Source: a virus (lineage: Duplodnaviria; Heunggongvirae; Uroviricota; Caudoviricetes). Taken from it: DNA of 64,000 nt. The notes under the pieces are model-generated. The model did no database searches and was not told the origin of the DNA. It was given only the letters and a program-made list of their open reading frames with translations. The stretch lies in IMG/VR virus record IMGVR_UViG_2579779105_000001. One strand, given 5' to 3'. Of the stretch, positions 9,491 through 45,222 are shown piece by piece. Made by a program: the position numbers and the translations under genes. Within the stretch, counting starts at the first letter, position 1. Each line of letters starts with the position of its first letter.

Positions 9491-9506
9491 CAAATTTCTA
9501 ACATAG
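9491..9506 (+). promoter_or_regulatory. operator-like motif AAATTTCTAACATAG
   Basis: Member of the recurrent TTTCTAACA(T) motif family, upstream of the RepL-like gene. Confidence 0.45.
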
Positions 9507-10724: not shown

Positions 10725-10929
10725 GGAATGTATGATCTGCATCATCGACTGAAGTCATCCATTGCTGAAATTTTTAGTTGATCTTCCATGTTTTCAGGCT
10801 TATATTCATGCCGTCGTAGCAAATTCTGCGACCAGGTTTGACAGCCTGAATGTTAGTGCGGACAACCGCAGATTTCCGATATTGCGGTATTTTTGTGTCC
10901 GTAAACCGCGTTACGCCCGAATTATGGTG

Positions 10930-10995
10930 GGGCGTGATGGGGAGGCTTCGGCCTGCTGGTTTCACTAACGCCAGTCTGTCAACCCTGTCACGTCC
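10930..10995 (+). ncRNA. candidate c4-like antisense RNA
   Basis: GGCTTCGGCC tetraloop hairpin, then CACTAAC and CTGTCAA, complementary to GTTAGTG and TTGACAG found at 10838-10858 and again at 11006-11041 over the downstream SD; boundaries approximate. Confidence 0.3.
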
Positions 10996-11052
10996 TGCCA
11001 CCTGTTTGACAGCGGGTAGCAGGTTGTTAAACCTGTTAGTGAGGCCGTAACT

Positions 11053-17870: not shown

Positions 17871-18503
17871 TTGGCTACAGCGCAGAGCATTATCGAAACA
17901 TTAAAGCGAGAGTGCTCACAGCTTGGTCACGATCTGAACCGTGCTTGTGGCATGGGACAAAGACCAGAGACATTTCCACTTATGTATGATGGGCGGGATG
18001 CCATTGCCTACATCCATGAGTATCCGCACGGCCTGGTTGCGGAAACTGGGCAGCGTGGCGAAGCACTGCTGACGGCTAATTACCATCAACAAATCAGAAC
18101 CAATCGCCTGTTAACGATGGATGTGATCCCATCGGTGTGGGGAACGCCGCTTTACTATCGCCTGCCGGGCTTCGAAAAGGACTGGAATACCGACATAGAC
18201 GAATGTCTCGCAGATAAAATTATGGCGTACCTGGAGACGGATTTTCCGCGCTTATATCGCCGGATTATGGACTCTAAGGATGCGCCAATCGATGAATTAA
18301 AAATGCGTCCGGAGACGCTGGAGGCAATCAAGCAGACGGAGTTTGATACTGTATTCAGTGTGGCCTGCATTCCAAGCTGTTTCCATGAAAGCATTCCGTT
18401 CATGCAAGGAGATCGTCGTCAGGAAATCATTGACGCTTGCCGGGTATGGGCGAACGAATGGGATAAGAAGAATGGGGGTGTAGAAGATCTTTACGGGAAA
18501 TAA
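17871..18503 (+). CDS. hypothetical protein
   Basis: 210 aa; track start is TTG; frame stays open upstream to 17751 across the darB stop; an in-frame ATG exists at 17952. Confidence 0.4.
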   Translation: MATAQSIIETLKRECSQLGHDLNRACGMGQRPETFPLMYDGRDAIAYIHEYPHGLVAETGQRGEALLTANYHQQIRTNRLLTMDVIPSVWGTPLYYRLPGFEKDWNTDIDECLADKIMAYLETDFPRLYRRIMDSKDAPIDELKMRPETLEAIKQTEFDTVFSVACIPSCFHESIPFMQGDRRQEIIDACRVWANEWDKKNGGVEDLYGK

Positions 18504-18505
18504 TG

Positions 18506-18516
18506 TGTTAGAAATC
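18506..18516 (-). promoter_or_regulatory. operator-like motif (reverse complement AGATTTCTAACAC)
   Basis: Variant of the recurrent motif, directly downstream of the 17871..18503 ORF. Confidence 0.35.
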
Positions 18517-19156
18517 TAAAATTACGATTCGAATGTATTGATTGTGAAGGTAACTTAACATAGAATTTTCCTTGCTGGTGGGCGGCACCCACGTTTCGCT
18601 TGCTGGGCTTGATAGTCACTTATTGGTTATTGTTCGCCCACCAGCATTTAACAAATTAAAGCGTTAGAAAAGTATAGTAACGCAAGAGCACGCTTTGGCA
18701 CCGTGCAGGCCAAAGTTCAGCAGGTTTAGTGCGGAAAGTGGTTTCAGAGAGAGCACTTTGCGGAGTAAACGACAGTACATGTTGAGCCACGGAAGGTCTT
18801 TTTAAGGTGTTCATTGATGATGGTCCGGCAGAGAGTAACGGTACATGCTGCATCTAATCATCAATGCACATCTTCAACATTAAGGAGGCATAGGGATTTT
18901 TGTGGCGGTTACCTTTTGCCCTGAGTCTCCTTAATGTTGCGGTAATGCACCTATGCGGATGTGGCCTTGCATTGTGTCTTGAAAGAATGGGGTAAGGCCG
19001 GGGACATCCCCAGGGGGAGGCACCCCCGCTGCAACGAACAGCCACAGACGGCAGTCGAGTGATGGGAACGTGCAAAGACTTTAAACCTCGTTATGGCTGG
19101 CGTGGCAAACGCGACAACCGAGACAGAGCGGTGACGGGCGGAGAGAGTGCCGCATC

Positions 19157-19278
19157 AAGAAAGAAGCCGACTTGTGATCCCTTTCAGCGGGCATTTGAAA
19201 GTGAATCCAGTTCAGGCAGTCGGCTTCTTTCTTGTGTGAGATGTAGCGTATTTGCCCATCTTCGGGTGGGCTTTTTTA
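19157..19278 (+). ncRNA. candidate small RNA: 16-bp inverted repeat stem-loop plus intrinsic terminator
   Basis: AAGAAAGAAGCCGACT (19157-19172) pairs with AGTCGGCTTCTTTCTT (19218-19233); then GCCCA-TCTTCGGG-TGGGC + TTTTTT at 19254-19278; no convincing ORF. Confidence 0.35.
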
Positions 19279-19737
19279 GGGTTTTCGTCATGGTTAGCGA
19301 CTTTGCGGCGGTTTAGAACCCGACCATTAAAGTAAATGCAAACGATGATCTGATGATGGTAGCGGCCTAAGAAGCCTGACGCCACGGGGTATGAGTCGTC
19401 CCCCGTCAAAAAATCGACCGCAGAGTGTCCCCGTCTGTGTATTAGGGAACGGGGAGGCATAACAGGCAAGGGCGCTGGTGTGATTAACCAGATGAATGAG
19501 AAGGGTCAGGTCTTTCTGGTCAGCGCCCTTACCTGTTACGTCCCTCCCGCGTAACAGCCATTGCTTGATGGTATATGGGAAAGTTTGTTGGTTACGGGTA
19601 TATCCCGTCATGCTGAAGGCGCTAATCACGCTGGAAGCCAGGGTTATGCATCCCCTGTTACTGAATTGCAGCCAGGGCGCGGTGCGCCGAAAAGCATACG
19701 GAGGTGGAAGCCCTCGCCGGAGACGTACCCGGCAAGT

Positions 19738-45189: not shown

Positions 45190-45222
45190 GTGTTAGAAAA
45201 TCAATTTTGATTTTCTAACATG
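45190..45222. promoter_or_regulatory. palindromic double operator TGTTAGAAAATCAA-TT-TTGATTTTCTAACA
   Basis: Perfect 14-bp inverted repeat made of the recurrent motif, between the divergent ref-like gene and the leftward accessory cluster. Confidence 0.6.

Follow-up and report, generated by a model that had tools for sequence, protein, structure and literature searches.

Trans-translation is thought to require a tRNA-like domain that is linked, covalently or by base pairing, to the template of the tag. The standard transfer-messenger RNA of Enterobacterales (tmRNA; SsrA, RF00023) is 363 nt long and combines this domain with a resume site, a tag reading frame (ANDENYALAA in E. coli), a hairpin and, downstream, three pseudoknots. 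In the two-piece, or permuted, tmRNAs carried on many viral contigs (RF04321; 'tmRNA*' in ARAGORN), the acceptor piece ends in CCACCA and the 5′ strand is GGGCCUG. When RefSeq phage genomes were screened in a 2014 survey, tmRNA genes were found in mycobacteriophages only (PMC4131195). Here we analyse a block upstream of a tRNA cluster in a 64,000-nucleotide viral sequence (IMG/VR record IMGVR_UViG_2579779105_000001; the whole stretch is called the window, and positions refer to it). The block, 18504-19737, spans the interval from the stop codon of a pmgS-like gene (18503) to the start of tRNA-Asn (19738), and a preliminary description had suggested that it was not spacer but structured RNA, in one or more units. 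At its centre lies a 185-nt tmRNA-like element on the plus strand (19279-19463), which we call the tag RNA. It belongs to a widespread structured RNA family that is absent from Rfam.

The tag RNA consists of a conserved 5′ segment (GTTTTCG...GCGACTTTGCGG...TTTAGAAC), a resume context, a tag frame, a stop-codon hairpin and two pseudoknots. Its structure was derived by eye from an alignment of 36 diverse sequences from unrelated phages, and the same sequences, with no P1- or D6-type member included, were used for a covariance model (R1) of the nested helices. R1 matches 19297-19463 over its full length (positions 1-160 of 160) with 83 bits (E 1.3e-20), and it scores 84-89 bits on P1, P7, pHX138 and pNCYU. 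The fold comprises a hairpin in two parts that holds the stop codon in its loop, another hairpin whose loop bases pair with downstream sequence (pseudoknot 1), and a second pseudoknot. Window helices are at 19357-60/19381-84, 19364-66/19374-76, 19385-89/19401-05 and 19429-33/19450-54, and the pseudoknot pairings at 19395-98/19415-18 and 19420-24/19434-38; all of them are fully paired, in sequences unlike those of the main type.

Base pairing in the family is maintained through sequence change. Over the 25 pairs of the 36-member alignment, the two pseudoknots included, 92.4% of cells are paired, compared with 28-48% when partners are slid, and changes occur on both sides of 12 pairs. The alignment has a covariation score of 0.299; shuffled versions give 0.149 ± 0.010, and none of 500 reached the observed score. 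When P1-type rows were added, the nested helices were 93.8% paired, with a covariation score of 0.434 versus 0.177; taking both alignments together, 92-94% of cells are paired versus 28-51% with slid partners, and 10-12 pairs show compensatory changes. The loop pairing of one pseudoknot passes from CCGA/UCGG to CCAG/CUGG to CCAA/UUGG and is GUCG/CGAC in the window, while another pseudoknot pair changes from C-G to U-A to G-C. Almost no variation is seen in the loop GGUGUGAUUAAUAA or in the segment GCGACUUUGCGG. For the central element, conservation and covariation, the check named in the preliminary account itself, together with the full-length model match, support the structured-RNA interpretation of the preliminary description and make it more specific.

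A BLAST search with a main-type member matched 761 GenBank phage records. As assigned from these records, the family occurs in Klebsiella phages of ~47 kb, ViI-like phages (~157 kb), FelixO1-like phages (~86 kb), one T5-like phage, Erwinia phages and P1. Hardly any of these records annotates the matching sequence, and that of P1 leaves the tag RNA out entirely. Use of the conserved 5′ segment as a second motif yielded >120 further loci, all with 10-codon tags. Family loci scanned with Rfam have tRNA genes nearby on the same strand, and at gathering score only tRNAs and STnc100 were reported. The window shares this layout, with the tag RNA upstream of the same-strand tRNA-Asn (19738) and stem modules at 19156-19234 and 19459-19539. 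On one P1-like contig (L073:2324-2460), a transposase-like insertion ends right before AAACTGACCATTAAAGTAAAT; the 5′ segment is lost and the model score is 50 bits. We found no description of the family in the open-access literature, and an earlier description elsewhere is possible. Such forms are not mentioned in a 2025 tmRNA database paper (PMC11915505).

The tag frame at 19338-19370 reads GCA AAC GAT GAT CTG ATG ATG GTA GCG GCC TAA (ANDDLMMVAA*) on the plus strand and has no start codon; the resume site of the window is GUAAAU directly followed by GCA. The frame has the same length, 10 codons, in all 57 distinct family sequences. Its first codon is always GCA or GCT and its second AAC or AAT; at codon 10, with a single exception, all four alanine codons are in use. 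The stop codon is TAA in 55 sequences and TAG in 1, and one frame is ended by the contig edge. None of the 57 has an in-frame ATG, GTG or TTG after the upstream in-frame stop, which in 54 of them is a UAG seven codons before the tag. An out-of-frame AUG overlapping the resume site is lost in some members, and Ala-Asn-Asp is kept via synonymous changes. Tag variants in the second-motif loci include ANDDVVLMAA, ANEEMYLAVA, ANDEQFLAVA and ANDDLMLMAA. The fixed length of 10 codons, the synonymous change and the lack of a start together indicate that the frame is constrained at the amino-acid level without conventional initiation, a pattern that is the signature of a tmRNA tag. The statement that the block holds no convincing open reading frame (ORF) stands for long frames but not for two short ones with coding-type conservation, this start-less frame of 10 codons and another of 31 codons at 18900-18995.

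Several features of the tag RNA are shared with permuted tmRNA. The resume context, AAGUAAAU directly followed by GCAAACGA, is identical. Tags in both start with Ala-Asn-Asp, end with Ala-Ala-stop and run for 10 codons without an initiation codon; in both, a hairpin (helix 5) holds the stop codon in its loop and pseudoknots come after it; and the GUUUUCG motif of the tag RNA occupies the place of tmRNA GGUUUCGAC. The resume-site 16-mer AAGTAAATGCAAACGA is found on >120 viral contigs, and on 46 of these it is the resume site of a permuted tmRNA called by ARAGORN. Standard tmRNA likewise shares an ANDENYALAA-like tag and the order of resume site, tag, hairpin and pseudoknots, but the tag RNA, at ~185 nt, has two pseudoknots rather than three and no tRNA-like domain was found in it. 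The stretch GCGACUUUGCGG...GAAAC also resembles GACGGGAUUUGCGAAAC of E. coli tmRNA, a comparison that serves as a lead only. The 185-nt RNA probably descends from the coding part of a phage-type two-piece tmRNA; it keeps the resume context, the start-less Ala-Ala-stop tag, the stop codon in a hairpin loop and the downstream pseudoknots. Complete permuted tmRNA genes are carried by at least 46 IMG/VR viral contigs (among L037-L149, e.g. L037:9962-10325, L086 and L100), with tags that include ANDNVWALAA, ANDSVYALAA and ANDSRFLMVA. On two contigs, L052 and L090, both pieces are present and were overlooked by ARAGORN.

Our preferred explanation, to which we give a little less than an even chance, is a joint one: the block would form the front of a repressor-controlled RNA operon, and the tag RNA would act as a tag template in trans-translation. 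Its most likely job would be to let stalled host ribosomes append a phage-specified tag, and we favour template use because the tag frame is constrained and initiation-less. Such use would need a tRNA-like partner, and none was identified. A number of observations weigh against it. ARAGORN calls no tmRNA in the window, in P1 or in the second-motif family loci. The RF04321 (tmRNA_permuted) model gave 23.1 bits at 19197-19370 in a permissive scan of the window, 39.6 bits in a Klebsiella phage-plasmid and 21.1 bits in L156, all under the gathering score of 47, and in the window and the Klebsiella homologue the scores stem mainly from the tag region. A hidden Markov model (HMM) built on the 5′ section, from the tRNA domain to the first pseudoknot (PK1), of 57 true permuted tmRNAs finds nothing at 19270-19330, and from the 5′ end to the resume codon the tag RNA is not detectably homologous to them by this HMM. 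No acceptor strand, G3.U70 pair or encoded CCA is evident, and there is no acceptor piece upstream of the tag RNA; P1/D6 and Klebsiella tag RNAs are without both the CCACCA-ending piece and the GGGCCUG strand of permuted tmRNAs. An exhaustive search for 7-nt acceptor partners with CCA directly behind them gave matches at chance level only. We know of no mechanism that places a ribosome on a tag without a tRNA-like domain. Tag endings in the family (VAA, MAA, AVA) differ from the LAA degron of E. coli, and in the P1/D6 type an intrinsic terminator stands directly upstream of the tag RNA, so that expression would need read-through or another promoter.

Two candidates for a more complete molecule were considered and set aside. 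A full tmRNA was discarded on the negative ARAGORN result, the missing acceptor piece and the negative 5′-part HMM. A PK1-like pseudoknot at 19279-19328 (GGGUU/AACCC with AUGGU/ACCAU) is present in the window but is not kept in L098 or L009; covariation is uninformative on this point because the 5′ segment is nearly invariant.

The operon part of the preferred explanation draws on the setting of the block. Phage D6, which is related to P1, matches the window at 98.3% identity over 18400-20500, and by this sequence comparison the window is a D6-like relative of P1. The C4 antisense RNA and its a1/b1 targets (immI region) reach the Rfam gathering score at 10800-11005, which confirms the P1-family immunity layout. 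Comparison with phage and plasmid records shows that 18504-19737, in front of the tRNA cluster, is a mosaic whose modules have been inherited separately. The part 18504-19035 is limited to D6-like phage-plasmids, with ~70% identity in the copy of pHX138, whereas 19251-20231 is ~93% identical to P1 68855-69841, and P7 is likewise ~93% identical from 19251 on. The P1 counterpart of the sequence from 19251 onward lies downstream of the C1 operator Op72 and Pban and continues into trnA and trnT; the order of terminator, tag RNA, stem module and tRNA-Asn/Thr is common to this locus and the leader of the P1 ban operon. Upstream of 19251 the two differ, the D6 type having its own promoter and boxes, a small-ORF leader and another stem module where P1 has Op72, Pban and a 'dicF-like' segment. 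SSU5-like Klebsiella phage-plasmids retain ~90 recognisable nucleotides (19281-19370) alone, and it was this match that gave the lead to the tag RNA.

By this comparison, a polycistronic RNA operon would begin with this block, which would correspond to the P1 leader that is driven from Pban under C1 control and runs into tRNA genes. Transcription would start near 18573, from a promoter between two repressor-operator-like boxes. The transcript would carry a 5′ hairpin, then a structured leader with a translationally masked gene for a hydrophobic peptide of 31 residues, and after it long stem modules, a leaky terminator, the 185-nt RNA (19279-19463), further stem modules and tRNAs.

The predicted promoter is of sigma-70 type (TTGATT-17-TAGAAT, 18538-18566, plus strand; promoter scan), and both hexamers are retained in pHX138 (TTGATT-17-TAAAAT) despite a diverged spacer. 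It is bracketed by two operator-like boxes on the plus strand that emerged from motif enrichment and comparison with pHX138: box 1 at 18505-18524 (core GTTAGAAAT at 18507-18515), which is kept in the diverged pHX138, and box 2 at 18661-18680 (GTTAGAAAA at 18663-18671), whose pHX138 counterpart falls within a perfect TTAACA-17-TATAAT promoter. The underlying motif, GTTAGAAAW, occurs 10 times in the window (at 9494, 18507, 18663, 27859, 29272, 40289, 45192, 45211, 45842 and 55672) versus 1.13 times expected, a ninefold enrichment that none of 100 shuffles reached. The flanks of these sites share an AT-rich consensus, and those at 45192 and 45211 form a palindromic pair (45192-45219). We regard the GTTAGAAA boxes as candidate D6-type C1 repressor operators because a dispersed, asymmetric C1 operator guards Pban in P1 (the Op72/Pban arrangement). 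P1-type C1 operators are dispersed, asymmetric, AT-rich boxes at early promoters, and their P1 consensus, ATTGCTCTAATAAATTT, differs in sequence from the D6-type box.

The predicted start (~18573) coincides with the 5′ arm of a hairpin at 18573-18646 (plus strand; TGCTGGTGGGCG / CGCCCACCAGCA). The inverted repeat that had been placed at 18574-18584/18635-18645 proved, in a repeat search and base-by-base check, to be a perfect 12-bp stem (18573-18584/18635-18646). pHX138 conserves this stem around an unalignable loop. Other phages have a strong promoter at the same place, before a GCTGG...CCAGC hairpin, and a GCUGG...CCAGC hairpin likewise follows the promoter in unrelated phages.

Farther into the leader are two long hairpins that the preliminary description had overlooked, both on the plus strand. 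The first (18801-18821/18857-18877; the hairpin spans 18801-18877) has 21-nt arms with 19 of 21 positions paired, as seen by repeat search, pairing check and minimum-free-energy fold. The second (18875-18895/18919-18939; 18875-18939), with 13-bp perfect outer arms and an inner extension, sequesters a Shine-Dalgarno (SD) sequence, AAGGAGG (18882-18888), and a start codon. These signals belong to a small plus-strand ORF at 18900-18995 that begins with TTG and would encode a 31-residue, single-pass hydrophobic peptide (MWRLPFALSLLNVAVMHLCGCGLALCLERMG); SD and start lie within a 21-bp hairpin whose 3′ arm is itself coding. The best 19-residue Kyte-Doolittle mean of the peptide, 1.9-2.1, is hydrophobic enough for a membrane helix. 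Two short G+C hairpins (GGGGAcaTCCCC, GGGGGaggcaCCCCC; 19000-19027, plus strand) come right after the ORF, with no U-tract behind, and are ~100% identical in pHX138. The pHX138 sequence is in fact nearly identical over 18855-19030 though its flanks have diverged, but the case for selection from this pattern is weakened because recent recombination could produce the same.

Changes in more distant copies bear on the same hairpin. In 'variant C' plasmids the loop is unrelated but the stem is kept, with G-C in place of A-U in its outer arm and A-U in place of G-C in its inner one, so that compensatory changes are seen here as well as at the tag RNA; the ORF frame is kept past an unalignable N-terminus, with a TTG 7 nt after the SD and a length of 33 residues. 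Substitutions in the ORF among relatives comprise 5 synonymous and 2 conservative changes. Two plasmids speak against its being a gene: pNCYU no longer has the start codon, and an E. fergusonii plasmid carries a frameshift. The peptide has no Pfam or NCBIfam match, and tblastn found it in 119 D6-like plasmids and nowhere outside D6-like plasmids. From its sequence, 18900-18995 is probably a small membrane peptide gene under translational masking, for which a toxin role is possible. The 39-nt loop 18888-18926 is flipped in one IMG/VR contig (L018) and one plasmid (L036, NZ_CP058619), which deletes the start and N-terminus of the ORF. A programmed DNA inversion switch was considered and rejected, given that the flip occurs in only 1 of ~119 plasmids and that both flipped records share a private single-nucleotide polymorphism; we read the flip as one rare recombination that took place through the inverted repeat.

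Between this leader and the stem modules is a conserved plus-strand block, 19037-19146, to which no role is assigned. It is 81% identical over 113 nt to the Pantoea P1-like plasmid NZ_CP034366 (L008:3001-3113), where a stem module, a tRNA and a terminator likewise follow it; sequence comparison found no counterpart in P1 or pHX138. At the other end of the block, the rest of the leader up to tRNA-Asn (19548-19737, plus strand) is ~90% common to P1 and was assigned no function. Folding energy is far lower than in shuffles for 18573-19040 (z = -5.06) and moderately lower for 19030-19285 (z = -2.1) and 19279-19737 (z = -2.6).

Stem modules recur through the region. In each, a stem of 17-23 bp encloses a variable insert; the 5′ arm, of the type ACAACAGGUAAGAGC, is rich in purines, and the 3′ arm is GCUCUUUCCGUUGUG. 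Four are present in the window, at 19156-19234, 19459-19539, 19894-19979 and 20116-20215. The first, on the plus strand, was known from the preliminary description as an inverted repeat at 19157-19172/19218-19233 and is a perfect 17-bp stem (19156-19172/19218-19234) with a purine-rich 5′ arm and a 45-nt insert; it is D6-specific, stands in place of the P1 'dicF-like' segment, and shows partly compensatory changes in pNCYU (GAAAGAAGCC/GGCTTCTTTC to GATAAAAGCC/GGCTTTTATG). The second, also on the plus strand (ATAACAGGCAAGGGCGCTG / CAGCGCCCTTACCTGTTAC), accounts for an inverted repeat reported near 19473-19531, which we find at 19451-19477/19521-19547 (27 nt, 81%). Its insert opens with a CUGG-UGUGAUUAA-CCAG mini-hairpin, and a compensatory change separates P1 (CACAACAGG/CCTGTTGCG) from the window (CATAACAGG/CCTGTTACG). 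Arms of this type, ACAACAGGTAAGAGC...GCTCTTTCCGTTGTG, flank the tag RNA in many phages, and in other phages stem modules stand on both sides of it, with module-specific outer base pairs. ViI-like phages have the same layout with other arm sequences.

The module at 19894-19979 is tRNA-like, with a long acceptor-like stem, a hairpin GGCGACGUCGGAGAUCGCC and a T-arm GGGUUCGAAUCCC. It has U3-A70 in place of G3.U70 and no CCA, and neither ARAGORN nor Rfam calls it; of 174 related loci, 36 have an insert of this type beside the tag RNA. The P1 record has a coding sequence, 'plp', annotated across the counterpart of this module on the opposite strand. Processing stems cut by RNase III flank rRNAs and phage early mRNAs, and by analogy with those around rRNAs the 17-23-bp stems are probably processing sites that release RNA pieces. 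As in the known substrates, the stems enclose inserts and alternate with tRNAs, and their arms vary by phage group while the layout is kept; unlike those substrates, the modules bear a conserved bulge and mismatch.

The intrinsic terminator, or attenuator, comprises GCCCATCTTCGGGTGGGC at 19254-19271 followed by TTTTTT, with a 7-bp stem, a UUCG loop and a U-tract (U6) to ~19278 on the plus strand; a terminator scan agreed with its earlier placement at 19254-19278. It is kept in P1, P7 and pHX138, and a T.G pair becomes C-G in variant plasmids. It is also the sole part of the annotated P1 'dicF-like region' that is present in the window. DicF itself (RF00039) was dismissed, as searches up to E 10 in the window and up to E 0.1 in P1 gave no match.

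One element of the preliminary description is overstated: 'GC-rich' describes the block poorly, since the GC fraction in 300-nt intervals is 0.43-0.56 across it versus ~0.50 in the flanks, and the first 400 nt are below average. An Rfam scan, which that description had proposed, gave nothing in the block at gathering score; at permissive thresholds it added nothing beyond the weak tmRNA_permuted alignment and matches to STnc240, MicA and a miRNA that we dismissed as chance. The 85-codon ORF at 19059-19316 and other short ORFs were set aside as having neither family match nor conservation.

Beyond the block, copies of a tRNA-Thr 3′ end (CCGGCACCA) occur with no tRNA in front at 20108-20125 and 20336-20353, each followed by CAAC... 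and then by a stem module or by tRNA-Ser. Shuffling of tRNA cassettes seems to have left them behind as debris. The tRNA-Ser(UGA) at 20356-20443 scores 46.6 bits on the tRNA-Sec model (threshold 47), and the D6 record states that tRNAscan-SE left its amino acid unassigned. An STnc100-like element at 20553-20673 (40.4 bits; gathering 47) lies upstream of a tciA/terB-like gene. Its counterparts are at L001:4726-4845 in P1 and at L219:1118-1331 on a ~155-kb phage contig, where the score of 48.7 bits is above threshold.

Retention of the tag-template half of a tmRNA without its tRNA half points to either an unrecognised partner, and with it a new split architecture, or phage mimicry of tmRNA directed against the host. 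The former, stated broadly, would mean that many Enterobacterales phages (P1, FelixO1-like, ViI-like, T5-like and T1-like) have a tmRNA in split or 'headless' form, a tag template that has lost the tRNA-like domain and is partnered with a tRNA-like stem module of the phage or with the tmRNA/SmpB machinery of the host, a generalization that we hold to be possible but rather doubtful. For the latter, the tag RNA would be a molecular mimic of the mRNA-like domain and pseudoknots of tmRNA that titrates their binding factors, for instance ribosomal protein S1, SmpB, RNase R or Hfq, and so damps or redirects host ribosome rescue or RNA decay. The presence of an mRNA-like domain and pseudoknots where no tRNA-like domain was found is consistent with such a decoy, and the near-invariance of GGUGUGAUUAAUAA and GCGACUUUGCGG would fit a binding site. 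A tmRNA of mycobacteriophage DS6A that consists of the tRNA domain only is reported as an inhibitor of the host tmRNA (PMC4131195), and inhibition is thus within the reach of a partial tmRNA. A decoy, however, needs no open frame of fixed length, and the synonymous-only change at codons 1, 2 and 10 and the conserved stop codon would go unexplained; we think mimicry unlikely. It is more improbable still that the tag RNA is a leftover of a tmRNA gene travelling with tRNA cassettes, its helices aiding the folding or processing of tRNA precursors. The tRNA debris around it (the CCGGCACCA 3′-end remnants and the T-arm-bearing non-tRNA module), the missing tRNA-like domain and the insertion sequence that cuts off the 5′ part in L073 would suit a decaying gene, but the element is full length in 761 records across phage groups with unalignable flanks, every helix is upheld by compensatory changes, and the tag frame is constrained at the amino-acid level, none of which is expected of a relic.

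Two further explanations concern the block rather than the tag RNA. It could be a cis-acting leader or attenuator that tunes transcription into the tRNAs and downstream genes and gives rise to no separate RNA products, its hairpins serving in pausing, termination or transcript stability, as a conserved intrinsic terminator in mid-leader, operator-like boxes at the promoter and a P1 counterpart in the repressor-controlled ban operon leader would suggest. This too we judge very improbable in that the covarying module recurs in virulent phages with other gene orders, and the constrained tag frame would be left unexplained. For 18573-19030 the comparison is with the type I toxin mRNAs of enterobacteria, such as hok, tisB and zorO, in which a small hydrophobic peptide, a long structured 5′ untranslated region and an SD in a stable hairpin come together. 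All three are shared: the hydrophobic ORF of 31-33 residues has coding-type conservation and an occluded ribosome-binding site, its SD and start lie in a covarying 21-bp hairpin, and the 5′ leader is long and strongly structured (z = -5.06). A type I toxin-antitoxin-like module would, in addition, silence its membrane-active peptide through an antisense or trans-acting small RNA. No opposite-strand sigma-70-like promoter scoring >=8/12 was found in 18800-19100, however, and there is no Rfam match to an antitoxin RNA and no match to a toxin family; the peptide is confined to the 119 D6-like plasmids, and the ORF has decayed in some lineages, with the start lost in pNCYU and the frame broken in the E. 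fergusonii plasmid. Such a module has, in our estimate, a low probability.

The family merits an Rfam covariance model so that phage genomes are annotated correctly, and the long stem modules explain why 'perfect hairpins' are met again and again where phages carry tRNAs. Even for a textbook phage such as P1 this stretch of the record is blank, as it is for hundreds of phages that are candidates for therapy (FelixO1-like, ViI-like, T5-like and Klebsiella phages). If the 'headless' tmRNA reading is true, these RNAs would rewrite the tag placed on the proteins of stalled ribosomes during infection, which would amount to a new viral takeover of ribosome rescue and to a third tmRNA architecture.

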